From NCBI RefSeq assembly GCF_000007145.1, contig NC_003902.1, positions 120,001 through 152,000 on the forward strand: 32,000 nt of DNA, read 5' to 3'. A model generated the notes under the pieces. The model worked only from the letters and a program-made list of their open reading frames with translations. It did not search any database and was not told where the DNA came from. Of this stretch, positions 2-25,880 are shown piece after piece (position 1 is the stretch's first letter; every line of letters begins with the position of its first letter). The position numbers and the translations under genes were made by a program. This DNA comes from Xanthomonas campestris pv. campestris str. ATCC 33913 (GTDB lineage Bacteria; Pseudomonadota; Gammaproteobacteria; Xanthomonadales; Xanthomonadaceae).

Positions 2-1324
2 GTGGCCACGCAGTTCAACACCCGCAAGTCGGTGCGGCAGTCGCAGGCCGGAGCGATTTTCACCCAGCAATTCGATACCCAGACGCTGCGCCTGATGGCC
101 TACGGCGGCCAGCGCAGCGTGGAGCAGTTCCTGGCGATTCCGGTGGCGGTGCAGCGCAATCCGCTGCACTCGGGCGGGGTGATCGACCTGGACAGCAATT
201 ACGAAGGCGCCGACGTGCGCTGGGCCTGGCAAGGCCAGGCGCTGGGGCGGCCGCTGCAGCTCACCGTGGGGGCCAACGTCGACCGCCAGCGCCAGCACCG
301 CACCGGTTACGAAAACTTCGTCGGCACCACGCTCGGGGTGAAGGGCGCGCTGCGCCGCAACCAGCGCGATCAGGTCGAGAACGTGGACCAGTTCGCGCAG
401 GCCTGGTGGCAGTGGAGCAACCGCTGGTCGGCGCTGCTGGGCGTGCGCCACAGCGCGGTGCGCTTCCGTTCGGACGACAACTACATCGTCGGGCGGAACC
501 CGGACGACAGCGGCCAGCGCGATTATTCGGCCACCACGCCGGTGGCCGGCATCGTGTTCCGCGCCAGCGACGATCTGCGGGTGTATGCCTCGGTGGGACG
601 CGGGTTCGAAACGCCCACCTTCAACGAACTGGGCTACCGCAGCGACGGCGGCGCCGGCCTGGCGCTGGACCTGGGCGCGGCGAAAAGCCGCAACGTCGAA
701 GTGGGCACCAAGTGGCGCTCGCAAAGCGGTGCGGCGCTGGAACTGGCGCTGTTCCGCGCCGACACCGACGACGAACTGGCAGTGGCCAGCAACACCAACG
801 GCCGCAGCACCTTCCGCAACATCGGCGCCACCCGGCGCCAGGGCGCGGAGCTGAGCTGGCAGCAGCCAATCGGCCAGACCCAGCAGGTGCAACTGGCCTA
901 CACCTTCGTCGACGCCACCGTGCGCGACGGCTACCTCACCTGCGCCAGTAGCGGCTGCGCCACGCCCACCGCACCGGTGGCCAGCGGCGCGCGGCTGCCA
1001 GGCGTGCCGCGGCAGCAGCTGTTCGCACGCTGGCAATGGCAGCCGTTGCAGTGGCAGTTCGCCGCCGAATCGGTGGTCTCCGATGCCACCGTGGTCAACG
1101 ACCTAGCCACCGAGCGCGCCGCCGGCTACGCGCTGGTGAACCTGGAAGCCTCACGGCGCTGGACCACCGCCCACGGCGCGCTGCGTACCTTCGCCCGCAT
1201 CGACAACGCGCTGGACCGCGCGTATGTAGGCTCGGTGATCGTCAACGACGGCAACGGCCGCTATTACGAACCCGGCCCGGACCGCACTTACACCGTAGGC
1301 CTGCAGTGGGATTTTGGCAGCTGA
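2..1324 (+). CDS. TonB-dependent outer-membrane receptor, C-terminal beta-barrel part (5' end lies outside the window)
   Basis: ORF is open to the window edge with stop TGA at 1322-1324. The sequence is strand-like and rich in G, Y, R, W and N, with motifs such as GVRHSAVRFRSDD, FRNIGATRRQGAEL, NALDRAYVGS and the terminal YTVGLQWDF strand typical of TBDR barrels. Confidence 0.8.
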   Translation: MATQFNTRKSVRQSQAGAIFTQQFDTQTLRLMAYGGQRSVEQFLAIPVAVQRNPLHSGGVIDLDSNYEGADVRWAWQGQALGRPLQLTVGANVDRQRQHRTGYENFVGTTLGVKGALRRNQRDQVENVDQFAQAWWQWSNRWSALLGVRHSAVRFRSDDNYIVGRNPDDSGQRDYSATTPVAGIVFRASDDLRVYASVGRGFETPTFNELGYRSDGGAGLALDLGAAKSRNVEVGTKWRSQSGAALELALFRADTDDELAVASNTNGRSTFRNIGATRRQGAELSWQQPIGQTQQVQLAYTFVDATVRDGYLTCASSGCATPTAPVASGARLPGVPRQQLFARWQWQPLQWQFAAESVVSDATVVNDLATERAAGYALVNLEASRRWTTAHGALRTFARIDNALDRAYVGSVIVNDGNGRYYEPGPDRTYTVGLQWDFGS

Positions 1325-1596: not shown

Positions 1597-1887
1597 ATGA
1601 TCGTCGTAGACCACGCACCGGCCGACTGGTTTCTGCTGCGTGATGCAGATGATGGGTATTGGCTGGACGTGAACTGCAACATGTCTGCAACGGGCTTCTC
1701 GATCTTGCTGGCGTTGGATGCCGGTGAGCGTGACACCGTAGTAGCGCATGGTCACGCCGCTTGCCTGCAGCTTGCAGCGCAGGTACAGCAGTGCCCGCGG
1801 GATTTTGCCGCGCGTGACATCTCCTCGGTGCATGGCGCGCGCGTGACCGCAGCGGTGCACGCCTGGCGTGCGGCAGGTTCGGCATAG
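1597..1887 (+). CDS. Hypothetical protein, 96 aa
   Basis: ATG at 1597 lies about 8 nt after GAGAG. Product is MIVVDHAPADWFLLRDADDGYWLDVNCNMSATGFSILLALDAGE..., which looks like a globular protein. The upstream 35 codons of the track ORF lack an RBS and look non-coding. No family recognised. Confidence 0.5.
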   Translation: MIVVDHAPADWFLLRDADDGYWLDVNCNMSATGFSILLALDAGERDTVVAHGHAACLQLAAQVQQCPRDFAARDISSVHGARVTAAVHAWRAAGSA

Positions 1888-2254
1888 TCACGGCTGTCGG
1901 CAGGCAGGGCGCATGCACTACAGTCCACCGCACGCGTTCCGCGCGCGGCGCGGCAACGCGGTTACCGCGCAACTGTTCGGCGCACAAAACGTGCGTTGCG
2001 GTGAGAGAACGTCTTCGGCACGCAGGTCACACCGTCCCGCAAGAGGGTGTTCATGGTCCCGGGCGTGGGCATGCCGTATGCGATGGCTGAGCAAGATGAC
2101 GGCATGTTGCTGGTCGAGCCACGTGAGCAGCTCGCGACATGGGTGAGCTCCACACCACCGGCAATGGCATCTGGATCTGTGGAGCGATAACGCCATAGTG
2201 CCCGCCGGAATCGTGATGCTAAGCTGCGGCCAAGCACACCGCACGGAGCATGTG

Positions 2255-2728
2255 ATGCGTTCGATGATCTTGGTTTTCTTTGCAGCCCTGTGTGCCACCG
2301 GCGCGCAAGCGGTTGCAGCTGCACCTGCCACTGAACAGGCGCAACTGCGGGTGATCCGCACGTTTCCCGCCGATAGCCCGGCCGTGTCGCAGGTGCATCG
2401 CTGGTTGCTTGAGCAGCCTGCAAAGATGCGGCCACCAGCGACGGCCGCCGCGTTGGGCCAGGTGCGCACCAGCTACGTCATGCACGCGTCCGACCCTGCA
2501 CGCCGGGCACTGCTGACCAGGACCGATGTGGCATTCCCGGAGCGGGGGCAGACGGGCGATGCAGTGAGTATCGACAGTTGTGCCGGCGACACACGCCTGC
2601 ACTGGACCTATCGCTGGGACGCAACGTCAGCGCAGGCCGGCTGGCAGCTGCAGGCCTCGGAACTGGAGCGCGTGCCGGACTGCACGGCCGCGATGGCTGC
2701 ACTGCCTGGCGCCGCATCGCAGGGTTGA
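2255..2728 (+). CDS. Secreted hypothetical protein, 157 aa, with Sec signal peptide
   Basis: ATG at 2255 with GGAG at 2245-2248. The N-terminus MRSMILVFFAALCATGAQAVAAAP is a classical signal peptide (AVA-A). No family recognised. Confidence 0.6.
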   Translation: MRSMILVFFAALCATGAQAVAAAPATEQAQLRVIRTFPADSPAVSQVHRWLLEQPAKMRPPATAAALGQVRTSYVMHASDPARRALLTRTDVAFPERGQTGDAVSIDSCAGDTRLHWTYRWDATSAQAGWQLQASELERVPDCTAAMAALPGAASQG

Positions 2729-2761
2729 GTCGCGCATGAGCCAGACACGCCCGCGCACGCA

Positions 2762-2782
2762 CCGGCGTGGATTTCACGCCGG
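2762..2782 (+). terminator. Candidate stem-loop terminator (ccggcgtg-gattt-cacgccgg)
   Basis: Perfect 8-bp GC-rich stem with a 5-nt loop, 34 nt after the stop at 2728. No U-tract follows. Confidence 0.4.
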
Positions 2783-2954
2783 CTGAAGATTGCACGGGGG
2801 CGTTCGGCAATGACGCGCTGCAGCGCAATTGCAGCTCGATGCGCACTACGACAACTGCGCAGCGATGACGCAATGCAACAGCGTCGCGCGCACCATTGCG
2901 TGCAAATGGCGCTTGGGTATACACGTGCGGATTCGCCGCCTGCAGGAGACTCCG

Positions 2955-4484
<1,530 letters not shown>

Positions 4485-4648
4485 TGCAAGGCGAGCGGCA
4501 TGTGGTAGGTCCATCCTGCCGCATGCCGCGGTGCGCTTGCCGCGAAGGGCATTGATGCAGACAAACGCCTTCACGGCGACGCGTCAGCAAGTTCGAGCAG
4601 ACTGCTTGCCAGTGTGCAGAGCTGCTGAGCGAGCAACGGAGAGAGATA

Positions 4649-5041
4649 GTGCACAACACAACCGAGGTCACGTTACCGCTGCAGGTCATGGCGACCCTAC
4701 CCGCACTGCAGCTAATCGACACCTTGCGTGCGCGTCACGGTGACGTGCTGTTCCATCAATCTGGCGGCTGCTGCGATGGGTCGTCGCCGATGTGCTTCCC
4801 GGTGGGCGACTTCATTGTGGGCGACCGTGATGTGCTGCTTGGCGAGATCGGTGGTGCGCCGTTTTATATCAGCGCGCCGCAGTTCGAATACTGGAAGCAC
4901 ACGCAGCTGATCATCGATGTGGTGCCCGGGCGCGGCGGGATGTTTTCGCTGGAAAACGGCGAGGGCGTGCGTTTTTTGGTGCGCTCGCGCCTGTTTAGCG
5001 ACGACGAATTCGCGCAGCTGCAGCTGGCCAAGCGGGTGTAA
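4649..5041 (+). CDS. DUF779 family protein, 130 aa
   Basis: GTG at 4649 follows GGAGAGAG (4638-4645); an alternative ATG is at 4688. Motifs LFHQSGGCCDGSSPMCF and FYISAPQFEYWKHTQLIIDVVPGRGGMFSLE match what I recall of DUF779, which typically sits directly downstream of aldB/exaC-type aldehyde dehydrogenase genes. Confidence 0.85.
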   Translation: MHNTTEVTLPLQVMATLPALQLIDTLRARHGDVLFHQSGGCCDGSSPMCFPVGDFIVGDRDVLLGEIGGAPFYISAPQFEYWKHTQLIIDVVPGRGGMFSLENGEGVRFLVRSRLFSDDEFAQLQLAKRV

Positions 5042-15608: not shown

Positions 15609-16982
15609 TTACTCCTGCGGCAGCTTGGAAATTGCGATCCCGACGATCAGCGGCTGCTCGGATGTCGTGGTGCCGGTGAAGCTTTGCCCTGATTCGCTCA
15701 GGCTCCAACCGGCCTTTTCGCTGCCGCCTTCGGCTTCGAAGGTGAACGGGCCGATGCGCAGCCCGGTCGAGACCTTGAACATCTCGGAGAACTTGCTGAA
15801 GGACGACTTGCTGGTGGTGATGGTGAAGGTCGGCTTGTAGCCCACGTACATACCGGTCTTGAGGAGACCGAAGAAGCCCTTCTCGCCAAACACGGCCTGG
15901 GTGCCGTCCTCGCCGAACGCGCTATAGCCCTTTACGAACGGGCCGTTGCGCTTGCTGCGCACGAACGGGCCGTTGTACCAGTCGCTGGGCTGGATCTGGA
16001 TCAGGTCCAGCGCTTCGAACTCCACCGAAACGTCGAGTTCGTTGTCGGTCTCGAACTCGTCGATGCGCTGCCACTTGCCGGCGACTCGGACTTCCCAGAA
16101 CAGCTGGCGAATCTTGGCCGAACCGCCGGCCCAGGTCTTGCTGTAGTCGTAGGCCGCATCGCGGTTGGTGAAGCCCATGGTGGCGCCCGCCGGGCCCTGG
16201 CCGGCCTGCACCGCATCAATCCACTCGCTGGCGCTTTGTGCCACCGACCAGTTAGGCACCAGCGGGAACTTGGACAGCGCCGGATCGTTGAGCTTGGCGT
16301 AGAAGTTCTCATTGGCCATCTGCTTCTGAGCCTCGCCCAGGCCCGGCGTGTTGGCCTGCACGACCAGCGCGTTGTAGGTGAGCTGCGCCTGGTCCATCTT
16401 GACCTGCATGGTGCTGATCTTGTTCTGCCAACCGGCGCCGGCCGGCGAACCCAGCCATTTGGTGAAGGTCGGGTCGTTGTCGGTGACATCGTCCTGATAC
16501 ACCGAGCGCGCCTGGTTGTAGGCGATGGTGTAGCCGTTGCTGGCGGCGGTCAGCGCGTCGTCGGCCGCTTTGATCTTCTGCCGCAGTGAGGCGTCGTCGG
16601 TCGCGGCCGGGATCACGTTGAGGAATTCCTGGTAGGCCTGGTTGAGGCGATCGCCGCTGGACACGAAGGCGCCGACCGCGCTCCATTGCGGCGACGTGGA
16701 GCAGAAGTCGTACTGTGCGGTGCCGATGAAGCCCGCCTGCTGCATCGGCCAAGCCCAGGTCGTGAACGGATAGACCATCTGGAACGTATCCGGGGTGGCC
16801 CCGATGGCATCGGTCAGCGCGCGGTACAGCAGGCCCCAGGGCTTCTGGTCGTAGTCGGCGGCCTGCAGCGCGGCGGCATCGGCCTGGCGACGCTGCGCGG
16901 CGGTCTGGCGGAACAGCGACACCGGGGAATCGTGCGCCTCGGCGGTCGGGGTGTCGGAAGCATTGTTGGTATGGGTGAGCAT
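15609..16982 (-). CDS. Hypothetical protein, 457 aa, no recognised family, no signal peptide
   Basis: Long ORF with native-like composition. Start chosen at ATG 16982 (MLTHTNNASDTPTAEAHDSPVSLFRQ...) because the 34 upstream codons (MGCVRLRADRTPPPRCRRPQ...) look non-coding. The SD is weak. The middle looks helical and the C-terminal ~110 aa is Ser/Thr/Gly/Phe-rich and strand-like (GYKPTFTITTSKSSFSKFSEMFKVSTGLRIGPFTFEAEGG...). Confidence 0.8.
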   Translation of the reverse strand: MLTHTNNASDTPTAEAHDSPVSLFRQTAAQRRQADAAALQAADYDQKPWGLLYRALTDAIGATPDTFQMVYPFTTWAWPMQQAGFIGTAQYDFCSTSPQWSAVGAFVSSGDRLNQAYQEFLNVIPAATDDASLRQKIKAADDALTAASNGYTIAYNQARSVYQDDVTDNDPTFTKWLGSPAGAGWQNKISTMQVKMDQAQLTYNALVVQANTPGLGEAQKQMANENFYAKLNDPALSKFPLVPNWSVAQSASEWIDAVQAGQGPAGATMGFTNRDAAYDYSKTWAGGSAKIRQLFWEVRVAGKWQRIDEFETDNELDVSVEFEALDLIQIQPSDWYNGPFVRSKRNGPFVKGYSAFGEDGTQAVFGEKGFFGLLKTGMYVGYKPTFTITTSKSSFSKFSEMFKVSTGLRIGPFTFEAEGGSEKAGWSLSESGQSFTGTTTSEQPLIVGIAISKLPQE

Positions 16983-17298
16983 GGGTGCGTCTCGGTGGAC
17001 CGCAGCGATTGCTGCGGCAGGTGCCTGGGGCCGCCGACATCGCGGCGGTGGCGTCCGGTCGGCACGGAGCCGGACACAGCCCACCCTGCCGCGCCGCGCC
17101 TCGGCGTTGCCTTACCGCAACCTGCCGGACTGCAAGCCTATGAAGCGCTTGGGATTTTTTCGCTGCATGGCGCTGGCGGGGTCGCCTGGTGCAGATGTGC
17201 AATACAGGTGGCGGGACGCGTCGGCCGCAACCGTAAGCTGTCCGTCAGGTCCGCGCGGCCGGTTGCCGGCAGGGTGGCGCTGCGGCCCACGCGCCGCC

Positions 17299-17328
17299 CG
17301 GAGACCGCATTGCGCGCTCCGGTCTCCG
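17299..17328. promoter_or_regulatory. Perfect 9-bp inverted repeat cggagaccg-N12-cggtctccg just upstream of the lipoprotein gene (candidate operator or 5'-UTR hairpin)
   Basis: 17299-17307 and 17320-17328 are exact reverse complements. The repeat ends 15 nt before ATG 17344. Confidence 0.3.
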
Positions 17329-17343
17329 ACCAGGACTACCGCC

Positions 17344-17871
17344 ATGCGCTTGTTCCATAAGTTTGTCTTGCTGACGCTGTCGATGCTGTTCGCGGCATGC
17401 AGCACGCCCGTCCCGCGGGCCGCGCCCTCTGCGCCGCCACAGGCGCTGTTCAAGGGCACCGACGTTTCCGAAACCGATGTGATTGCACGTTCCAAGCAGG
17501 AAGGCTGCCAGCTGATCCCGTACGACACCAAGCGCAGCACCTGCGTGGACCAAAATGCAGGCCTGCATGACCCGACCGCCTGCGACGCGCTGGCATGCCA
17601 GAAGGCGGCCGGTAATGCCGCCAACCGCCTGCGTCTGGCGGCATGGCAGAGTTGCGTGGACCGGCGCACATTGATCAACGGCGCGTTCGACAGCACGCTC
17701 AAGGACCTGGACGCCTTCAAGAGAGGGCCGAGCTACAAGAACTGGAATCAGCCGGGCAAGAACGCGATGGCCACGCTGATCACCAAGATCAAGGCCGGCC
17801 AGCCGGGGCATGCAATCGCGCTGAAGAACGCAACCAGCACCCTGAAGGACTGCAAGAAAATCGTGAACTGA
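17344..17871 (+). CDS. Putative lipoprotein, Cys-rich, 175 aa
   Basis: The N-terminus MRLFHKFVLLTLSMLFAAC has a signal peptide with a lipobox-like LFAA-C. There are 7 further Cys residues in the mature part. No family recognised. Confidence 0.7.
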   Translation: MRLFHKFVLLTLSMLFAACSTPVPRAAPSAPPQALFKGTDVSETDVIARSKQEGCQLIPYDTKRSTCVDQNAGLHDPTACDALACQKAAGNAANRLRLAAWQSCVDRRTLINGAFDSTLKDLDAFKRGPSYKNWNQPGKNAMATLITKIKAGQPGHAIALKNATSTLKDCKKIVN

Positions 17872-17996
17872 ACCGTGCTCCCTGGCGGGCGTGGTCCGCC
17901 AGGGACACGCCGGTGCCGGGCCAAGCACGAAGGCCGTCCTCGGCGATGAGAGCCGCTCGGGGAAGCATCGCGCTCCGGTCCGCTGCGGAGTCCGTC

Positions 17997-18380
17997 ATGC
18001 GCCTGGTCCGATACCTCATCGTGTTGATCGTCCTGCTCTCCACCAGCGCCTGGGCGGCACCCACCCAGCCCGAACTCCCCGGTGCCTGGGCACGCGCTGC
18101 GCTGCATACGCTGCCTCGAAGCGAGCGCGACCTCAAGGTGCTGATCACCCCCTGCGCGGTGGCACCGGGGGCGGCGGCGCCCCGGCCTTGCGCCAGCCCG
18201 GCGATCGCCGTGGGCTCAATGGCCTGCGCGCGCCACCGCCGCTGTCCGCCTTGGAACGGCCACGGCGGGGTACCGGGCGGGCTGGCCATCCGCGGCCAGA
18301 TCAACGTGGCTTTCAGCAACGAGCCCGAGCCGGGCGTACGGTTGCAGCCGCACGCATGGGTGCGCGCAGGGGCGATCTGA
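17997..18380 (+). CDS. Small secreted hypothetical protein, 127 aa
   Basis: ATG at 17997 lies 6 nt after GGAG (17987-17990). Signal peptide MRLVRYLIVLIVLLSTSAWA-AP. The mature part is Pro/Ala/Gly-rich with 4 Cys. No family recognised. Confidence 0.5.
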   Translation: MRLVRYLIVLIVLLSTSAWAAPTQPELPGAWARAALHTLPRSERDLKVLITPCAVAPGAAAPRPCASPAIAVGSMACARHRRCPPWNGHGGVPGGLAIRGQINVAFSNEPEPGVRLQPHAWVRAGAI

Positions 18381-18547
18381 AAGTGCTGGCAGCGCCCTGA
18401 ATATCGGGCAGCGTGGGATCTGTCCGAGCGATGCGCCCGTCTTGCGGGCATGGTCCAGCGAACACCCCGACAACGCGCCGTTGCAGCATCACGCGCTCAG
18501 TCGGTACATCTCATCCACCTGTGACGCGCCATCGGCGGCAACGCAAA

Positions 18548-18579
18548 CACCTGTCCAGCGGCCGGCCGCCAGACAGGTG
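18548..18579 (-). terminator. Hairpin 10 nt downstream of the 127-aa gene stop (cacctgtccagcggcc/ggccgccagacaggtg)
   Basis: 16-bp arms with 2 mismatches centred on ggccggcc, located between convergent genes. There is no U-tract. Confidence 0.5.
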
Positions 18580-18589
18580 CGGCCATGCC

Positions 18590-18973
18590 TTACTGCGGGG
18601 AGATTTGCGGGTCGTTCCCGACCTGCGGGTCGCAGCTGAAACGCGTCTCGCGCTGCATGTCTTCGACGATGACGGTGAAGAAGATCAGTGTGGCCCGGTC
18701 ATTGGCATTGACGAAAGAGACCCAGCGGCCATCGCCGTCGTACTTGATCTGACTGATCTGGTTCTGCGAGTCCGAGCTGATCAGGTTTCTGATGCGAAAG
18801 TTGAAAGGCACAGCCTTGTCGAAGGCATATTTGATCGTCACGTTTCTCGCTAATGGCTCGAGAAGCATCAGGTCGGGCTCAAAGCGATAGATGTATTTGC
18901 CTTTCCCGGTATTACCGCCAAAATCGACGTAAGCAACGGAGAGCTCCGTGTGCATTTCCTTTTGTTCCGTCAT
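18590..18973 (-). CDS. Small cytoplasmic protein, 127 aa, possibly DP-EP-like, translationally coupled to the upstream wHTH-STAND gene
   Basis: ATG 18973-18971 overlaps the upstream stop TGA 18972-18970 (ATGA). Product is MTEQKEMHTELSVAYVDFGGNTGKGKYIYRFEPDLMLLEP...FSCDPQVGNDPQISPQ, with no signal peptide or TM segment. The C-terminal DPQVxNDP resembles my recollection of the motif in proteins annotated as DP-EP family (unverified). A hand count gives 205 of 384 nt G+C (about 53%), well below the neighbours. Confidence 0.75.
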   Translation of the reverse strand: MTEQKEMHTELSVAYVDFGGNTGKGKYIYRFEPDLMLLEPLARNVTIKYAFDKAVPFNFRIRNLISSDSQNQISQIKYDGDGRWVSFVNANDRATLIFFTVIVEDMQRETRFSCDPQVGNDPQISPQ

Positions 18974-21900
18974 GACTTGTCCTGTCCTTTGAAAAGCGGG
19001 GCATAGAGGGAGACGAACCCCGGGTGGCGGTAGCCCGCTTGGTACAGCCATCCGAGCTGTTGCGTAACGGCGGTGCGTTGCCCCAGATGCACGTGCGCGC
19101 GGATCCAGGGGTCAAGCAAATTCTTGTCGCGGCTGTTGCCCGCGTCCTTGCCGAGCACCGCCAGCGCGCGTTGCCACGCCGTGCGCGCACCGGTGTCATC
19201 GCTGGCGGCGGCGCGTTGTTCGCCGTGCCAGACCAGCGCCTGGGCCAGCGCTGAAATACCGACCACTTCATCGGGTTTTGCGCGGTGCAGGGTTTCCAGC
19301 CGGGCCACGATCGGGGCGAAGTCCTGCGCCAGCGGTGGTGCGCGCGCGGCCTGCATGCGCAGCGCGATGACCGCATCCAGCCATTGCCACTCCGGTAGTG
19401 GCTGCGCCTGTTGCAGCAGCTCGGCCATGGTCTGCTGCGCACGCGCCAGCTGCTGCGCGGCGTCCCCTGCGTGCCCATCCAGCGCGGCCACCCAACCGGC
19501 CTGCGCATAGGCGTGCGCCAGGTCGCGCCGCCACGCCACATTGTCCGGCTGCAGCGCCGCCAACGGCTGCAGCAGACGCAGACTCTCTCGCGCATCTTGC
19601 TGCGCCTGCACCAAGTGGCCACGCGCCAGCGCCAGGTTGGACGTGCGAATCAACGAGCCGGCCAGACGCCGCCGCCACGCATGTGCATCCGGGTCTTTAT
19701 CCACCAGCACCCGCAGCATGGCGAGTTGCTCGCGATAGCCCTGCTCGGCCGGCGCCAGCAGGCCCTGGTTTTCCTGCGCAAGGCTCAGCCCCGAGAGGCT
19801 GTCGATCAATTCATAACGCAGCGATGCGTTGTCCGGTGTGCGCGCTACCAGCACGCGCTTGAGTGCGATGTCGCGCGCAAAAAAACCAATTGCCGTTGGG
19901 GCATTGCCTTGCGTGGTCGCCAGCATCGCCAGGTTGTTGAGTGCGTACGACAACTCCAGCTGCCAGCGCGGATCGTCCGGCTTGGCGCGCACCAGCCATT
20001 CGCTCGCGGCCAGATACTGCGCCCAGTGCCTGCGCGCCAACGGGAACTGCTTGTTGCGGTAGGCCATGGCGCCAAGCCAATACGCCGCCTGGCCGGTTTC
20101 CGCATGCGCCTCCAAGACATCCGGGGCAAGCGTACGTGCCTGCGCGGCGGTGGCTGCGGCGCGGGTGAAGGCCGCATGCGCCTGGTCCAGCTTGCCCTGA
20201 TTCATCAGTACTTCGCCGGTGGTGCGCAGGGCGCGGGCGTGGTTGATCAGATCGCCGGCCTGCATGCTGGCATTGGGCAGTTCTTCCAGATACCGCAGTG
20301 CGCGCGTGCCCACGCTGTCGAGCAGTTTGAGATTGCCCACGGTGCGCAACTGCTCGGCCAGATCGCCCAGCATGTAGCCCACCAGTTGTTGCGCTTCGTC
20401 GCGGCGTTGTTCGGCCACTTGCTGCGCCTGGCGCGCCTGCCAGCCCAGCAGCAGCGACGCGCTGGCCAGCACCACCAGCAAGGCCGCGGCCGCGGCATAC
20501 AGCCCGCGCCGTTGCCGGTGCGCGCGCTCGCAGGCGTGCAGGAACGCCAGGTCCAGCGCGTCCAGGTCCTGCGGCATGCGCCGCGCCGCTTCGCGTGCCT
20601 CGCTCAGGGGGCGGCCGCTGTTGAGCAGGTGATCGTCACGGCGGCCCTCGCTGGCCCAGCGTTGCGCGGCCAGTTGCAGGCGCTTGCGTGCCTGCAGCAG
20701 GCGGCGGTTTTCATGGATCCATTCGCTGGCGCGCGGCCATTGCCGCAGCAGGGCTTCGTGCGCCACCGCAAAGCCCGGCTCGCCGGCAACCAGTTCGCTG
20801 ACGAACAGGCGCGCCTGCACGAAGGCATCCACCAGTGCGCGCGCGCCACTGGCATCGGGCAATGCCGACCACACCGCCCGCCGCGCGGTGACTGCTGCGC
20901 TGTCGGGGTGGATCACGCTCACCTGGGTGAGTACGTCGCCCAGGGCCGCCTGCGCAGGTGCGGGCAGGGCGCGGAAGGTCTGTTCTGCATGGTGCGCCAG
21001 TGCGCCTTCCAGTCCACCCAGTGCGCGATACGCGGCGAAGGTGAGCAGGCCATCGTCGCTGCGGCGTTCGTGCAGCGCCTGCAGCAGATGCTGCAGCAGC
21101 GGCAGTGCATCGGGTTGGCGCGCGGTGGCGTCGCGCAGCACATCGTCCAGGCGGCTGGCGCTGTCGTGGTCTTCTTCGAAACGCAGCCCGGCCATCGCCG
21201 CAGGCACGCGGATGATCTGGCCGATCTCGCCGTCGCGTGGCGGCAGCAGATCCACATGGCCATCGCCACGTTTGAGCTCCACCAGCTCCGGCACCGCTTC
21301 GATCAGCCGTGGATAGAAATCGCTGCGGGTCGCCATCAGCACCGCCACGTGCGCGCTGCTGCAGAGCGCCTGCAGCAACGCCGTGCACGCAGCACGGTCC
21401 TGCGCGGTGATGCCGGGTGTGGCCACCAGTGCTTCGGCATGGTCGATCACCAGCAACAGATGGCGGTGGGTCTGCACGGTCTCGCGGGCGGGGGCGGCGT
21501 GGCGCATCGCCTCGGCAATGGCCGCATGCAACGCCGCCGGCTGCGTCAGCCACTGCGTGCAGGTGGCCATCTGCGCGGCAGAAAACACCGCGCGCCCGTC
21601 CGCTGCCCACTCGGCCAATGCACGCGTCAGCGTGTCGGCCACATCGCCGCCGCGGCACGCCGCCAGGCTGCAATACGCCACCGCCACCGCCTGCAGGCCA
21701 TCCAGCCCGCCGGGCTGCGCCAGCAACGGCACCACACCGGCGCGCAGCAACGAGGTCTTGCCGCAGCCGCTGGCCCCGCTGAGCAGCACCAGCGCGCGCT
21801 GGCTCTGCAACTGCGCGCGCACCGCGGCAAGCACCTGCGCAATGGCGTGGCTGCGGCCGAAGAACACCTCCGCATGGTCCGGGTCGAACGCGCGCAGGCC

Positions 21901-22311
21901 CACGTACGGGCTGCCGTGCCCCCACGCACCCATGCCCGGCAACGCACCGCGGTAATCCTCGGGAAAGATCACCTTCGGCAGCAGCCGGTAACCACGTTTG
22001 CGGATGGTTTCGATGAAGCGTGGCTGGCGGCTGTCGTCGCCCAGCTTGCGGCGCAGCTGGGCGATGGTCTTGTGCACCGGGTTGTCGCCATAAAAGCTGC
22101 CGTGCCAGACATCGATCAGCAATTGCTCGGCGCTGATCACCTCGCCGGCACGCTCGGCCAGCGCCACCAGCACCTCCATCATGCGCGGCTCCAGCGTGAT
22201 GCGTTCGCCGTCGCCAATCAGCATGAGCCGCTCCGGCTCGACCAGCAATGGCCCAAGGCGGAACCGCGGGACAGAGCCCAGCTGCGTGACGCGCTCGCTT
22301 CGGAGGGACAT
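18970..22311 (-). CDS. Winged-helix (OmpR/CadC-type) DNA-binding domain, STAND-type P-loop NTPase (nSTAND-like), hydrophobic segment and TPR-like repeat protein, 1113 aa
   Basis: Start at ATG 22311 (MSLRSERVTQ...), since the 111 upstream codons of the track ORF are junk-like. wHTH: RFRLGPLLVEPERLMLIGDGERITLEPRMMEVLVALAERAGEVISAEQLLIDVWHG...IETIRKRGYRLL. NTPase entry motif SPYVGLRAFDPDHAEVFFGR, Walker A GASGCGKT (nt 21754-21777) and Walker B-like HLLLVIDHAE. Helix HEALLRQWPRASEWIHENRRLL...AAQRW. Hydrophobic segment LYAAAAALLVVLASASLLLGW (nt 20440-20502). About 490 aa of helical-repeat C-terminus. Confidence 0.9.
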   Translation of the reverse strand: MSLRSERVTQLGSVPRFRLGPLLVEPERLMLIGDGERITLEPRMMEVLVALAERAGEVISAEQLLIDVWHGSFYGDNPVHKTIAQLRRKLGDDSRQPRFIETIRKRGYRLLPKVIFPEDYRGALPGMGAWGHGSPYVGLRAFDPDHAEVFFGRSHAIAQVLAAVRAQLQSQRALVLLSGASGCGKTSLLRAGVVPLLAQPGGLDGLQAVAVAYCSLAACRGGDVADTLTRALAEWAADGRAVFSAAQMATCTQWLTQPAALHAAIAEAMRHAAPARETVQTHRHLLLVIDHAEALVATPGITAQDRAACTALLQALCSSAHVAVLMATRSDFYPRLIEAVPELVELKRGDGHVDLLPPRDGEIGQIIRVPAAMAGLRFEEDHDSASRLDDVLRDATARQPDALPLLQHLLQALHERRSDDGLLTFAAYRALGGLEGALAHHAEQTFRALPAPAQAALGDVLTQVSVIHPDSAAVTARRAVWSALPDASGARALVDAFVQARLFVSELVAGEPGFAVAHEALLRQWPRASEWIHENRRLLQARKRLQLAAQRWASEGRRDDHLLNSGRPLSEAREAARRMPQDLDALDLAFLHACERAHRQRRGLYAAAAALLVVLASASLLLGWQARQAQQVAEQRRDEAQQLVGYMLGDLAEQLRTVGNLKLLDSVGTRALRYLEELPNASMQAGDLINHARALRTTGEVLMNQGKLDQAHAAFTRAAATAAQARTLAPDVLEAHAETGQAAYWLGAMAYRNKQFPLARRHWAQYLAASEWLVRAKPDDPRWQLELSYALNNLAMLATTQGNAPTAIGFFARDIALKRVLVARTPDNASLRYELIDSLSGLSLAQENQGLLAPAEQGYREQLAMLRVLVDKDPDAHAWRRRLAGSLIRTSNLALARGHLVQAQQDARESLRLLQPLAALQPDNVAWRRDLAHAYAQAGWVAALDGHAGDAAQQLARAQQTMAELLQQAQPLPEWQWLDAVIALRMQAARAPPLAQDFAPIVARLETLHRAKPDEVVGISALAQALVWHGEQRAAASDDTGARTAWQRALAVLGKDAGNSRDKNLLDPWIRAHVHLGQRTAVTQQLGWLYQAGYRHPGFVSLYAPLFKGQDKS

Positions 22312-22859
22312 TCGCTTGACTACCGGTCGTACAGCTGAAAGGGGCCTTGACGATCGCCAATAGGGCGCGGACAGGCACGGCACGGCAGGGCCGGAACATA
22401 GCACAGCCACTGGTGCCGAAATTCGACCATGGTCTCTGTTCGCCGCGCGGCGTCTGGGGTCACGCCAAGGTGTGCTGTGAAGGTGCATTGCGGGCGCCCA
22501 CGCGCTGAGGTGAAGGCGCGCTGCCTCGGTATCGGCGGGCGGCGTTGCACCTGCGGCACAGGCACCGGTTGCGTGCGCAGCGCTGCCGACCGATGCGCTT
22601 CCATACAGCAGCGTGTGGAAGCGCGCGTAGTCCGATGCACGCACTGGCCGTCACGCCAGCCAGCGCATTCAGTGCCGCGCCGTTGCATGTCCGCGCGCTG
22701 CATGCGCACGCGCTGCCCGGTGCGCGCAGTGCATTGGCGCACAAGCGATTCACACCCTGCGTGCGTGTGTAAGCACCGCCTGGGTGGCGTGTGCGACCTA
22801 CCCCAGCGCGCTGTCAGGCCCTAAGATGCCGCCAGCATCTTGCTGACCAGGAGTCCACG

Positions 22860-24068
22860 TTGATCATCCATCCCAAAGTGCGCGGCTTCATCTGCACCAC
22901 CACGCATCCCCTCGGCTGCGAGCGCAATGTGCTCGACCAGATTGCCGCCACGCGTGCGCGCGGCGTGCGCAACGACGGCCCGAAGAAGGTGCTGGTGATC
23001 GGCGCATCCAGCGGCTACGGCCTGGCCTCGCGGATCACCGCGGCCTTCGGCTTCGGCGCGGACACGCTGGGCGTGTTCTTCGAAAAACCCGGCAGCGACA
23101 AGAAGGCCGGCACTGCCGGCTGGTACAACTCGGCCGCCTTCGACACGCATGCCAAGGCCGCCGGCCTGTACAGCAAATCGATCAATGGCGATGCGTTCTC
23201 CGATGAAGCACGCGCCAAGGTCATCGAGCTGATCAAGACCGACATGGGCGGGCAGGTGGACCTGGTGGTGTATTCGCTGGCCTCGCCGGTGCGCAAGCTG
23301 CCGAGCACCGGGGAAGTGAAGCGTTCGGCGCTCAAGCCGATCGGCAACACCTACACCGCCACCGCCATCGACACCAACAAGGACACCATCATCCAGGCCT
23401 CGATCGAGCCGGCCACCGAGCAGGAGATCGAAGACACCATCACCGTGATGGGCGGGCAGGATTGGGAACTGTGGATCGACGCGCTGGACAGCGCCGGCGT
23501 GCTCGCCAAGGGCGCGCGCAGCGTGGCCTTCAGCTACATCGGTACCGAGATCACCTGGCCGATCTACTGGCACGGCGCGCTGGGCAAGGCCAAGGTCGAC
23601 CTGGACCACACCGCGCAGCGGCTCGATGCGCGCCTGCAGGCCAGTGGCGGCGGCGCCAATGTGGCCGTGCTCAAGTCGGTGGTGACCCAGGCCAGCGCGG
23701 CCATCCCGGTGATGCCGCTGTACATCTCCATGGTCTACAAGATCATGAAGGAAAAGGGCCTGCACGAAGGCACCATCGAACAGCTCGACCGCCTGTTCCG
23801 CGAGCGCCTGTACCGCGAAGACGGCCAGCCCGCCGAAGTGGATGAGCAGAACCGCCTGCGCCTGGACGACTGGGAGCTACGCGACGACGTACAGGACGCC
23901 TGCAAGGCGCTGTGGCCGCAGGTCACCACCGAGAACCTGTTCGCACTCACTGATTACGCCGGCTACAAGCACGAGTTCCTCAAGCTGTTCGGCTTCGAGC
24001 GCAAAGATGTGGATTACGACGCCGATGTGGATCCGGACGTGAAGTTCGATTGCATCGAGTTGGGTTGA
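22860..24068 (+). CDS. fabV: Enoyl-[acyl-carrier-protein] reductase (NADH) FabV / trans-2-enoyl-CoA reductase family, 402 aa
   Basis: TTG start at 22860 lies 6 nt after AGGAG (22849-22853), giving (M)[20 protein letters not shown], which matches the conserved FabV N-terminus. The protein is colinear with Vibrio FabV as I recall it ([80 protein letters not shown]). Confidence 0.95.
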
Positions 24069-24073
24069 TTGTC

Positions 24074-24094
24074 GGGATTAGGGATTAGGGATTC
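24074..24094. repeat. Short heptanucleotide repeat (GGGATTA)2 GGGATTC directly after the fabV stop
   Basis: Read directly. It is the same GGGRWTY heptamer family as 11221-11304, and the G-rich strand is the fabV sense strand. Confidence 0.7.
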
Positions 24095-24095
24095 G

Positions 24096-24126
24096 CAAGA
24101 GCCGTGGCGTCATGTCACGGCTCTTG
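24096..24126 (+). terminator. Perfect 11-bp stem-loop (caagagccgtg-gcgtcatgt-cacggctcttg), candidate fabV terminator
   Basis: 24096-24106 pairs with 24116-24126 around a 9-nt loop, 28 nt after the fabV stop. There is no U-tract. Confidence 0.6.
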
Positions 24127-24262
24127 TGCAGCACGCAGTGTCTTTGACGCATACGCTTTGGCCTGCCAGCCAAGGCGTTGCGACGAATCGCTGACGTGTC
24201 TGTACATCGCTAAAAAGCAGCGTCGTCCTTGAATCTCATCCGCACAGCATGGAGCGCACGAC

Positions 24263-24553
24263 GTGTTGGACAAATTAATCATTTTTCTGCTGCTGGCCCT
24301 GTTGGTCAGCGTGATTTGTGCCGTGCTGTTGCGGTTCGCCACGCTGCACTGGTCACTCAAGGCCATCATCAATCTGGTGATCACTACCGCCGTTGTCTGT
24401 GCGGTGGTCATGCAAGACGGCTCGGCGCCACCGCTTCAGTTCGCACTGATGATCACGCTTTTTTTCAGCGTACCGGCCTCGCTGTGCGTGGTCCTGCTGA
24501 GCGCGGCGCTGAAATGGTTCACCAACAAACGCCGCGCCCGCGCGCCCGCCTGA
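24263..24553 (+). CDS. Small integral membrane protein, 96 aa, about 3 TM helices
   Basis: GTG at 24263 lies 8 nt after GGAG (24251-24254). There are three hydrophobic stretches (LIIFLLLALLVSVICAVLL, AIINLVITTAVVCAVV, LQFALMITLFFSVPASLCVVLLSAAL) and a basic C-terminus. A hand count gives 171 of 291 nt G+C (about 59%). Confidence 0.55.
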   Translation: MLDKLIIFLLLALLVSVICAVLLRFATLHWSLKAIINLVITTAVVCAVVMQDGSAPPLQFALMITLFFSVPASLCVVLLSAALKWFTNKRRARAPA

Positions 24554-24626: not shown

Positions 24627-25880
24627 TCAGCGGAAAAGCGTCACGTCGATCGCGTCCGCCATGGCCGCATAGCCGGCATCGTTGGGGTGGAGCCGGTCGC
24701 GGGATGCAAAGCGGGCTTGAAGCTGGAGCGGATGCTCGGCATCGCGCAGCACCGCATCGAAATCGATCACTGCATCGAACGCGTGGCTGTTGCGGATCCA
24801 TGCGTTGACCGTCTGCCGAGCCGCCTCTTTCTGCGGCGAGTAAAAGCCGGGGACTGTATTGCCGGCGAACGGCGTCAAGGTCGCGCCGATTACCTTGATC
24901 CCATGGTCGTGCGCGCGTGCGATGAGCTGCCGGTAGGCGCTGATCACGTACTCCGCGGTTCTCACCTCTGTCGGCGGCGCAAAGTAACGCGAACCGATCT
25001 TGACCCCCGGCGCGGCGATGTCGTTGATCCCTTCCAGCAGCACGATGTGCGTCACGCCCGGCAGCGCCAGGACATCCCGGTCGAAGCGGGCCAAGCCGCT
25101 TGCGCCGTACCCCTCATGCGACAACTGATTGCCTGCGATCCCGGCATTCACCACGGACAGGCCAGGGTCGGTCGCTGCCACGCGCTGTGCGAATTGGGCT
25201 GGCCAGCTGCGGTCAGCGTCGGTCGTGGACCCCGCACCGTCGGTGATCGAGTCTCCGAATGCCACCAGCAACCGCTGCGCACGTGCCTGCGGTACCAACA
25301 CCGCACTGATCGCGATGGACGAGGTGGACGTCGCGGCCGGCGCGATGGACGTCTCTCGCGTGTGGTCGCCGGGTGTGCTCACCACCGCGCGCTTGAGCGC
25401 CAGGGAGTGCAGCGTGTTGGACGTGACCCGCTCCGGAAAGAACAGGCTGATGCCGACCTGTGCACCCGGCGCAACCTGCAGATCGACCGGGTCGCTGAGG
25501 ATGGGAGCGCCTGCGGGGATGCTGACGGAGGACTGCCCGCCGAAGGTGAGCTGACGCAGCGAAGCTGGTTCCACGGTCGAAGCATCCTTCGCCACGGCGA
25601 TGGAGGCCGACCCAATGGTCAGCGGTGATGCACTCAGTTCGTTGGACAGGCGTACACGCAGCTGGGTACCGCCGATGGACATGCGAACACGCTGCCGTAC
25701 CGTCTGCCCGTCGATGTTTGCCAGCGGCTCTTCCGCATCGGCCTCCCCGGCCTGTGGGCTGGTTGCCCAGCTGGCAATCCATCCCGGCTGGGCTGACGGC
25801 GTCTGTGCGTAGGACGGGCAGGGGCATACGCCGCCCATCAGTGCGGCGACGAGGGCGGCGGCGATCGCGATGCGGCTCAT
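24627..25880 (-). CDS. Secreted SGNH/GDSL-family hydrolase (esterase/lipase-like), 417 aa
   Basis: Signal peptide MSRIAIAAALVAALMGGVCPCPSYA-QTP. An N-terminal ~170-aa beta-rich module is followed by block I LLVAFGDSITDG, block III GINDI and block V DRLHPNDAGY. Confidence 0.9.
   Translation of the reverse strand: MSRIAIAAALVAALMGGVCPCPSYAQTPSAQPGWIASWATSPQAGEADAEEPLANIDGQTVRQRVRMSIGGTQLRVRLSNELSASPLTIGSASIAVAKDASTVEPASLRQLTFGGQSSVSIPAGAPILSDPVDLQVAPGAQVGISLFFPERVTSNTLHSLALKRAVVSTPGDHTRETSIAPAATSTSSIAISAVLVPQARAQRLLVAFGDSITDGAGSTTDADRSWPAQFAQRVAATDPGLSVVNAGIAGNQLSHEGYGASGLARFDRDVLALPGVTHIVLLEGINDIAAPGVKIGSRYFAPPTEVRTAEYVISAYRQLIARAHDHGIKVIGATLTPFAGNTVPGFYSPQKEAARQTVNAWIRNSHAFDAVIDFDAVLRDAEHPLQLQARFASRDRLHPNDAGYAAMADAIDVTLFR

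Follow-up and report, generated by a model that had tools for sequence, protein, structure and literature searches.

Two overlapping genes on the minus strand of Xanthomonas campestris pv. campestris (Xcc) ATCC 33913 raise the question of what kind of system is formed by a large, regulator-like protein and the small protein encoded directly behind it. The genes lie in a stretch of 32,000 nucleotides from contig NC_003902.1, which was analyzed here and is called the window. The original prediction described the large protein (1113 aa) as a winged helix-turn-helix (wHTH) domain followed by a STAND NTPase, a hydrophobic segment and helical repeats, left the small protein (127 aa) unassigned and regarded the pair as a candidate signalling or conflict module. 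The present analysis argues, with moderate confidence, that the pair is a two-gene transmembrane signalling cassette and not a defence system. The coordinates of all features are collected in Table 1.

The large gene is probably XCC0114 / XC_0118 (GenBank AAM39433.1 / AAY47209.1), and Xcc proteins 100% identical to its product are named 'winged helix-turn-helix domain-containing protein / nSTAND1 domain-containing NTPase'. In the translated window its open reading frame (ORF) starts with an ATG at 22311 and ends with a stop at 18970. The frame is open upstream as far as a GTG at 22644; M1 is the start in alignments of all homologues, and the NCBI annotation also gives 1113 aa. The ORFs, coordinates, quoted motifs, ATGA overlap and drop in GC content over the small gene that had been described were all found in the sequence, and the translation of the large gene contains SPYVGLRAFDPDHAEVFFGR, GASGCGKT, LLLVIDHAE and HEALLRQWPRASEWIHENRRLL.

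The proposed four-part architecture was confirmed by Pfam matches to Trans_reg_C and nSTAND1, a conserved transmembrane (TM) segment and weak matches to tetratricopeptide repeat (TPR) models. The Trans_reg_C match had an E of 5.5e-19 (68.5 bits vs a cut-off of 26.2). The best NCBIfam match of the wHTH was CadC (E 2.2e-16), with only the wHTH matching, and the score for the CadC equivalog NF007540 was 59.8 bits vs a cut-off of 400. In the PDB, the CadC DNA-binding domain (5ju7, E 1.4e-19) was the best match of the wHTH, followed by response regulators and ToxR. The assignment of the NTPase to the nSTAND group likewise held, with a match to PF20703 at E 6e-85 (286.6 bits vs a cut-off of 27.1) over profile positions 1-378 of 379. 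The Pfam NACHT model stayed below its cut-off (25.7 vs 26.7), and no match to BTAD or NB-ARC was obtained in Pfam. In an alignment of 9 sequences with identities as low as 58%, neither the Walker A residues nor D290 and E293 vary. For the C-terminal arm, Pfam returned weak matches to TPR_2 (E 0.014), TPR_1 and TPR_Slam, and precomputed TPR matches are present in many orthologues. Since the domain E-values lie far past chance and homologues of both genes occur at more than 100 independent loci, the features of the two genes are not chance.

The small protein is annotated in Xcc by NCBI (Q8PE68, 764 contigs) and had no direct match to Pfam and NCBIfam models. With 8 clusters in a word-indexed search it resembled a Xanthomonas-restricted orphan, a reading that was rejected because full hidden Markov model (HMM) searches returned 127 clusters (50% identity) and also reached the canonical DP-EP family. 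Six-frame HMM searches place the small gene in essentially every related genome; short, fast-evolving partner genes can look like orphans in k-mer-prefiltered searches. The DP-EP model PF08985 was reached by 18 of 121 aligned relatives (best E 1.9e-5), and a profile of the small-protein family matched the SO1698 structures in the PDB (E 1.8e-8). An hhalign comparison with canonical DP-EP proteins gave 97.0% probability and an E of 8.5e-11 over 88 columns. An AlphaFold2 (AF2) model from the 121-sequence alignment had a mean local confidence (pLDDT) of 91.8 and a predicted template-modelling score (pTM) of 0.83. When this model was searched with Foldseek, the top 12 PDB matches were all SO1698, with template-modelling (TM) scores of 0.62-0.75, root-mean-square deviations (rmsd) of 2.8-3.5 A and probability 1.00, the best of them having scores of 0.70-0.75 and an rmsd of 2.8 A. 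Judged by profile and model, the protein that had been treated as an unknown is a divergent branch of the DP-EP/DUF1888 superfamily and not a strict PF08985 member, a filing that follows from its differences from the canonical family. SO1698 was followed in the structural ranking by MakD (6tct, 8rqy; score ∼0.54, probability 1.00), which is encoded in the mak toxin operon of Vibrio cholerae and is a small accessory beta protein as well, with a poorly understood role.

Self-cleavage at an Asp-Pro bond has been documented in vitro for SO1698 of Shewanella oneidensis (PF08985; PDB 3n55, 3njf-3njn; Osipiuk et al., J Biol Chem 2012;287:19452). SO1698 and the window protein share fold, superfamily, size, the lack of a leader and D-P-x-x-x-N-x-P near the C-terminus, at ∼10-15% identity and with S-P-D-P in SO1698 vs S-C-D-P in the window protein at the site. 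The C-terminal motif of the window protein (Table 1) is in register with S114-P-D116-P117-Q-I-I-N-R-P of SO1698. D115, P116, N120 and P122 are each conserved in at least 90% of the 121 family members, S113 corresponds to SO1698 S114 in the Xanthomonas clade while this position varies across the family, and the DP motif of family members always stands a few residues before the C-terminus, with a variable tail beyond it. In the AF2 model, residues 117-120 form the final strand, past the putative scissile bond. The SO1698 entries were deposited in the PDB as a self-cleaving 'aspartic peptidase'. Their chains comprise 119 residues in the wild type, Y26F, K98A, P115A and Q118A, and 128 residues in D37A, S114A, D116A and P117A, a pattern that fits cleavage at Asp116-Pro117. 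A later paper cites SO1698 as self-cleaving, with cleavage reported at low pH (PMC11655445). By alignment, the window small protein most probably self-cleaves at Asp115-Pro116, as SO1698 does at Asp116-Pro117, and this cleavage would free the 12-aa peptide PQVGNDPQISPQ.

Such a reaction could have a consequence other than release of a peptide. Cleavage might proceed via a reactive Asp anhydride at the C-terminus, to which a lysine of the partner or of another target would become linked. This would make DP-EP a protein tag that activates itself, in analogy to the self-processing module of Neisseria FrpC. The conserved scissile Asp-Pro and the tight stoichiometric co-expression with the large gene are consistent with this. 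The chemistry is established for FrpC of N. meningitidis, which undergoes Asp-Pro autocleavage; the analogy is a chemical one, and FrpC differs in that it requires Ca2+ and belongs to a secreted RTX protein. The cleaved forms of SO1698, however, were deposited as plain truncated chains, which suggests hydrolysis and not transfer, and neither reaction accounts for the near-invariant Cys beside the Asp in the branch of the window protein. A covalent tag is therefore considered highly unlikely.

Pairing of the two genes was counted starting from either gene. The large-gene-first census covered 77 species-representative loci down to ∼40% identity, from Xanthomonas, Lysobacter, other Lysobacteraceae, Rhodanobacteraceae, Tahibacter and Luteibacter; at three of these the contig ends inside the large gene, and 74 were counted. 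A homologue of the small gene was detected by HMM directly downstream on the same strand at 66 of the 74 species loci. At the other 8, which belong to Lysobacteraceae, the gene appeared to be absent, and this was ruled out by a more divergent ORF in the same place that ends in DPQVGND(G/P), so that all 74 Lysobacterales species loci carry the pair. In the small-gene-first count, which included only metagenome loci with upstream DNA, a full-length homologue of the large protein was encoded just upstream in 21/21 cases (GC 0.30-0.71); the scan used a 23-sequence subset of the alignment as query, and its census is therefore biased toward the CDPQV[LT]NxP branch. The co-conservation of both genes, on which the original prediction had staked its reading, was thus found at every locus in both counts. 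As in the window, orthologues of SO1698 follow a wHTH-nSTAND1-TM-arm gene: in Shewanella baltica (SO1698 orthologue) and in Rheinheimera the DP-EP gene lies 20-23 nt past a Trans_reg_C-nSTAND1 gene of 1075-1093 aa. The distant member P0253 is likewise paired with a Trans_reg_C-nSTAND1 gene, and P0140 is also paired. The pairing of DP-EP with the large gene is near-universal.

At the junction in the window, gtcATGAcgg, the TGA of the large gene and the ATG of the small gene overlap by 4 nt, which had been taken to imply obligate coupling. Such overlaps are frequent, as 40 of 89 non-redundant junctions are of this ATGA type, including those in distant and kinase-linked lineages, but they are not obligate: 3 junctions overlap by 8 nt, 17 have a gap of ≤30 nt, and about one third have a gap >30 nt by a start-codon heuristic. 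An apparent 371-nt overlap at L076 is probably an artefact of start choice. The wide gaps would be compatible with a small gene that is a conserved downstream passenger of a regulator operon, with no functional link to it. Against a passenger stand adjacency, order and strand, which are kept at well over 100 loci (GC 0.28-0.74), through paralogue duplication and through the replacement of the whole head described below; moreover, none of the examined DP-EP genes with upstream DNA is without a partner. This explanation is considered the least probable of all, with hardly any weight.

In some Lysobacteraceae, paralogous pairs occur in tandem, each large gene with its own small gene. Tandem STAND-plus-DP-EP pairs were observed at L048 (1878-3777 and 7347-9136), L047, L052, L054 and L063, and some of the DP-EP genes encode two domains. 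In these tandem two-domain variants each domain keeps a complete DPQVGN[DN]P motif, and internal cleavage would therefore part the domains. P0234 (633 aa, '8 repeats') was rejected as a DP-EP polyprotein, being a low-complexity false positive without the DP motif. A natural fusion of both genes was also considered for L033, L034, L038 and L082, where the small domain lies in a stop-free frame spanning the large gene, and was ruled out by explicit frame comparison, which showed that the stop-free frame is not that of the large gene but a spurious one of the kind common in high-GC DNA. In the window, a 975-aa open frame runs antisense to the STAND gene (19411-22338, plus strand), and several alternative-frame ORFs of 200-560 aa overlap 18970-22644. 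At 68% GC these are regarded as artefacts of the same effect that gave the apparent 'fusion' frames in Lysobacter.

What the DP-EP gene follows became apparent at the divergent edge of the family, where the loci of three DP-EP genes without the Cys (P0242, P0246, P0238) were looked up. Two of the three overlap by 4 nt a gene for a Ser/Thr kinase of 822-849 aa, and not a wHTH-STAND gene. Both kinases (L117, L120) have a TM helix at ∼residues 336-363, and their regions after this helix match the large-protein HMM at positions ∼591-962 with E 1e-51 to 3e-59; in BLASTP, aa 625-944 of the window protein and the kinase region after the TM helix are 35% identical (E 1e-32). At the third locus only a C-terminal fragment of the upstream gene is present, and it matches the far end of the arm. 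Since the cytoplasmic head is exchangeable between wHTH-STAND and Ser/Thr kinase, the TM helix and arm are the constant element beside DP-EP, and by these comparisons the conserved unit is TM helix, TPR-like arm and DP-EP, with a swappable cytoplasmic head. The suggestion that the partner is tied to the STAND NTPase is thereby replaced: DP-EP tracks the TM-TPR arm, and the sister branch has a kinase head. That DP-EP follows the TM-arm and not the STAND head is the strongest clue to its function.

The position of this arm relative to the membrane was assessed from hydropathy. The TM segment is the top 19-aa hydropathy window of the large protein (mean Kyte-Doolittle 2.35), and among 99 full-length homologues (loci of GC 0.30-0.74) the top window lies at the same position, the boundary between NTPase and arm, in 98, with values of 1.65-3.13. 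Its position is conserved and its sequence is not. Lys and Arg residues flanking the segment number 4-8 on the N-side vs 3-5 on the C-side, a positive-inside bias. Because the wHTH and NTPase must be cytoplasmic, the large protein is predicted to be a single-pass protein with N-in/C-out orientation and an extracytoplasmic arm of ∼490 aa, in agreement with the ToxR/CadC-like topology with an inserted ATPase that had been proposed. SO1699 of S. oneidensis, numbered next to SO1698, is independently annotated as 'transmembrane transcriptional regulator'. In the DP-EP family no signal peptide was found in 134 of 135 members, and the prediction of a leaderless, cytoplasmic small protein was upheld.

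STAND modules act as nucleotide-dependent oligomerization switches, and winged helices of the OmpR type bind to DNA in oligomeric form. From this family knowledge, a signalling cassette could work as follows. The first gene would encode a single-pass inner-membrane transcription factor with wHTH and nSTAND1 switch in the cytoplasm and the arm on the far side, and the second, usually translationally coupled, a leaderless beta-sandwich DP-EP protein that cuts itself. A cue sensed via the arm, together with DP-EP, would promote NTP-dependent oligomerization of the STAND module, which would gather the winged helices on DNA and change transcription, as in ToxR/CadC with an additional ATP-dependent step. 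DP-EP would be an accessory subunit that the receptor cannot do without, and its state of autoprocessing would license or limit receptor activity.

Several points weigh against the signalling cassette as outlined. No published experiments on this gene pair were found in the searched literature. PF08985 returned nothing at E ≤ 0.1 for the window small protein. Canonical members carry an N-terminal L-E-N-G-E-P-V-F in which E21 and P22 are invariant; this 'NGEP' motif is absent from the sequence of the window protein, which has F-G-G-N-T-G-K-G-K-Y at the position (GGNxGxGxYxY in place of 'NGEPVF'), and hhalign leaves the N-terminal third unaligned. The branch of the window protein has a near-invariant Cys before the Asp, where SO1698 has Pro115. 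In the alignment SO1698 D37, apparently needed for cleavage, falls on L35, with D34 nearby and D/G/S at the family position, so that an equivalent residue is not clearly conserved. The arm is only weakly TPR by Pfam, and one of the 99 homologues, L092, has no TM helix (top hydropathy 1.33). Most directly, the arm is predicted to be periplasmic and DP-EP has no signal peptide, a mismatch of compartments by which direct contact between the two needs an unexplained step. L092 itself (1685-5002; 2.4-Mb metagenome contig, GC 0.43) is still followed, after 10 nt, by a DP-EP gene; L092 may be soluble and could then help to solve this compartment puzzle.

The mismatch would be resolved if DP-EP were a precursor and the freed peptide PQVGNDPQISPQ reached the periplasm and bound the arm as an autocrine or quorum-type signal, a model that may be regarded as a narrower form of the favoured cassette. 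DP-EP follows the arm and not the cytoplasmic head, TPR domains commonly bind short peptides, as in the RRNPP receptors, and every family member ends a few residues past the DP motif with a variable tail, all of which would suit a pro-ligand. On the other hand, no exporter conserved in the neighbourhood was found, and the PQVxNxP core is near-invariant across very distant taxa, as would be expected of a catalytic or structural element more than of a signal that carries specificity. Moreover, residues 117-120 form a strand in the AF2 model, and the cleaved peptide of SO1698 reportedly remains bound. A pro-ligand is thus regarded as possible but doubtful.

The other half of the original prediction was a conflict module, in which the nSTAND1 protein would sense an invader and DP-EP would be an effector or toxin, as in nSTAND/Avs-type systems. 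nSTAND1 was defined in counter-invader systems (PMC8195603), and targets of diversity-generating retroelements (DGRs) point the same way. At L087-L089 (1-1130) an RHS/Tc-toxin gene with a PT-HINT domain adjoins the pair, and at L007-L009 (4586-4981 in L007) a convergent barnase-like ribonuclease gene does so. Among the context evidence, these toxin-type neighbours alone speak for a conflict module; the paralogous tandem pairs and lectin genes of some Lysobacteraceae may be added to it. Against such a role, the locus is single-copy and syntenic across Xanthomonas species, in the order TonB-dependent receptor, PfkB, fabV, large gene, small gene, with fabV on one side of the pair and housekeeping genes on the other, and its orthologues are 71-84% identical and track the species. 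The output is a DNA-binding domain, PADLOC gave only a weak match at the level of the P-loop (mad8, E 1.4e-5) and none for the small protein, no toxin-like fold match of DP-EP was found, and a Ser/Thr kinase can take the place of the STAND head. With vertical syntenic inheritance, DNA-binding output and no defence-family matches, the conflict module fared poorly and is considered unlikely.

Base composition gave no sign of recent transfer either. GC is 0.558 in positions 18501-19000 vs ∼0.66-0.72 in adjacent 500-nt bins, and the total GC is 0.541 in the small gene and 0.690 in the large gene, which might suggest a separate origin of the small gene. In 89 of 97 pairs the small gene is lower in total GC than the large gene, by 5-17 points in high-GC genomes; in low-GC genomes the difference disappears or changes sign. 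The G+C content at third codon positions (GC3) is about equal in the two genes (mean difference -0.02, 97 pairs). Horizontal acquisition of the small gene is ruled out by this unchanged GC3 and by the behaviour in low-GC genomes; the low GC reflects a beta protein rich in N, D, F, Y, I, K, S and T compared to a helical protein rich in A, L and R.

A signalling role is thus far better supported than a conflict role. DNA-binding output, single-copy synteny, the weak P-loop match and the replaceable STAND head disfavour defence, and the transmembrane signalling cassette is retained as the preferred reading. A more specific form of it is advanced only tentatively, namely that TM-TPR arm and DP-EP are a modular sensing cassette gated by autoproteolysis, in which the receptor would read the released peptide or the reactive cleaved protein and drive either STAND-wHTH or a Ser/Thr kinase.

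By function, ToxR/ToxS, CadC and MalT/AfsR are closest to the pair; by homology, the nSTAND1 proteins and SO1698. With ToxR/ToxS, TcpP/TcpH and CadC the pair shares an N-terminal OmpR-type wHTH, a single TM helix and a C-terminal extracytoplasmic sensor (here predicted), and with operons of the ToxR/ToxS type a small partner gene directly downstream. Unlike ToxR and CadC, the window protein has a STAND NTPase of ∼425 aa between wHTH and TM helix and a large TPR-like sensor, and its partner is leaderless (cytoplasmic) and predicted to cleave itself, in contrast to ToxS and TcpH, which reside in the membrane or periplasm. MalT and AfsR/large SARP-type regulators also combine a DNA-binding domain, a STAND NTPase and a TPR/SUPR sensor in one polypeptide, AfsR shares the N-terminal OmpR-type wHTH, and their logic, ligand-triggered and nucleotide-dependent oligomerization that activates transcription, is expected here. 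The large protein differs from them in its nSTAND1 clade (not NB-ARC/MalT type), its TM helix, its DP-EP partner and in that no BTAD was found. Because the TM helix separates the nucleotide-binding oligomerization domain (NOD) and the sensor, auto-inhibition of the NOD through direct contact with the sensor, the mode of soluble STANDs, is not available to the large protein.

The nSTAND1 conflict proteins (PMC8195603) and Avs have the same NTPase clade (PF20703), whereas the N-terminus of the large protein is DNA-binding and not a TIR, caspase, nuclease or effector-associated domain (EAD), and the protein is membrane-spanning and vertically inherited. Neither linkage of the large protein to conflict effectors nor PADLOC membership was found, its neighbours at the syntenic locus being housekeeping genes. 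The sister branch (L117, L120) resembles PknB-type receptor Ser/Thr kinases in the order kinase, TM helix and extracytoplasmic arm, and differs from them in that its arm is the TPR-like module of the STAND regulator, accompanied by a gene for DP-EP.

In the searched literature, no characterized system with this architecture and partner was found, as had been anticipated, and likewise no paper on the Trans_reg_C-nSTAND1-TM-TPR architecture and no description linking DP-EP/DUF1888 to the neighbouring regulator. For XCC0114, XC_0118 and SO1699 nothing beyond transcriptome and mutation tables was found there, and for XCC0114/XCC0116 no literature. In Xcc 8004, XC_0117 ('hypothetical protein', log2 +1.04) and XC_0118 ('transcriptional regulator', log2 +1.01) were both ∼2-fold up in a mutant of rpoE1, an envelope-stress sigma factor; an arcA mutant of Shewanella showed induction of so1699, and one clone evolved in a chemostat had acquired an L127Q change in SO1699. 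Beyond these reports (PMC6085468 Table 3; PMC2262068; PMC7253198), no experimental mention of XC_0117, XC_0118 or so1699 was found. XC_0117 and XC_0118 are probably the window pair, and thus co-regulated, the mapping of the tags being inferred from FabV as XCC0115 (PMC4542539), the matching product names and the accessions AAM39433.1 and AAY47209.1.

Transcript features around the pair were also inspected. The hairpin behind the small gene (Table 1) has a predicted RNA fold of -37.3 kcal/mol (z -3.47), a stability that one of 200 shuffled sequences equalled. A simple consensus scan did not report it because of its weak U-tract, and such a strong hairpin after the small gene fits a two-gene unit. 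The region between the large gene and fabV, which was identified by Pfam, is the presumed promoter/operator of the large gene; no sigma-70 consensus promoter was found by consensus scan.

No third gene conserved in all lineages was found around the pair. An ORF with a weak XRE-type HTH match and a gene for a ricin-type lectin come after the pair in one Lysobacteraceae clade only, as at L048 (weak XRE-type HTH_3 ORF at 2562-3188, ricin-B lectin gene at 3331-3777); conserved downstream genes occur in a cluster of 11 loci (L042, L046-L048, L050, L052, L053, L056, L058, L062, L075) and are possibly a clade-specific extension of the module. A GGDEF gene after the pair was seen in Shewanella and Rheinheimera only. 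This diguanylate cyclase with 'Diguanyl_cycl_sensor' (L113, 8950-9978; L115 and L116, 7531-8505) is one unannotated gene away from the pair in Shewanella baltica and directly next to it in Rheinheimera, which hints at a link to cyclic di-GMP signalling in these lineages. In Xcc, three extra ORFs without Pfam match (15609-18380) lie between the small gene and a histidine-kinase/response-regulator pair. In other Xanthomonas species, a far shorter distance separates the response-regulator and kinase genes from the DP-EP gene, occupied by no more than a short unannotated ORF or an IS110 transposase, and the Xcc ORFs look like a lineage-specific insertion. A second low-GC bin in the window (24001-24500, 0.554) coincides with the gap between fabV and a GDSL-lipase gene (24627-25880, minus strand).

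Table 1. Features of the gene pair and of its surroundings. Positions are those of the window; residue numbers refer to the protein concerned.
Feature	Residues (aa)	Position (nt)	Strand	Remarks
Extra ORF, 457 aa		15609-16982	minus	
Two extra small proteins		17344-17871, 17997-18380	plus	signal-peptide or lipoprotein-like N-termini
Terminator-like hairpin		18547..18580	minus	15-bp stem, GGCC loop, then UUUGCGUU; ∼10 nt past small-gene stop
Small gene, 127 aa (Q8PE68_XANCP)		18590..18973	minus	leaderless, all-beta, divergent DP-EP/DUF1888 (by profile and model)
Motif S113-C-D115-P116-Q-V-G-N-D-P122	113-122	18608..18637	minus	C-terminal
Predicted self-cleavage site Asp115-Pro116	115-116	18626-18631	minus	from alignment with SO1698
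Translational-coupling junction		18970..18983	minus	AGGA 18983-18980, 6-nt spacer, ATG 18973-18971, TGA 18972-18970
Large gene, 1113 aa		18970..22311	minus	wHTH, nSTAND1 NTPase, TM helix, TPR-like arm
C-terminal TPR-like helical arm, ∼490 aa		18973..20439	minus	predicted periplasmic; weak TPR matches
Single TM helix LYAAAAALLVVLASASLLLGW	604-624	20440..20502	minus	preceded by RAHRQRRG
nSTAND1 NTPase module	135-559	20635..21909	minus	Pfam PF20703
Walker B LLLVIDHAE	285-293		minus	
Walker A GASGCGKTS	179-187	21751-21777	minus	
OmpR/CadC-type winged-helix DNA-binding domain	35-110	21982..22209	minus	Pfam Trans_reg_C
Divergent intergenic region, large gene to fabV (XCC0115)		22312..22790		presumed promoter/operator

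For DP-EP/DUF1888, a crystal structure and the self-cleaving chemistry have been available since 2010-2012, and the protein has been tried as a biotechnological cleavage tag; to our knowledge it has no known function. The components of the pair are already annotated in public databases, whereas the system, its modularity and the context of DP-EP appear undescribed. The analysis gives DP-EP/DUF1888 a first biological context, as the constant partner of a membrane receptor. The natural head swap defines the input module and offers a ready-made experimental comparison. A STAND sensor across the membrane from its NTPase conflicts with the usual model of auto-inhibition by direct contact, so that the signal must be transferred differently; if the topology is true, this would be the first membrane-spanning STAND with sensor and NTPase in different compartments, and an autoproteolysis-gated cassette, if true, would represent an input logic new to bacterial receptors. 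In plant-pathogenic Xanthomonas, the pair is core and syntenic and seemingly responds to loss of RpoE1, and it may control an unexplored regulon in envelope stress or host interaction.

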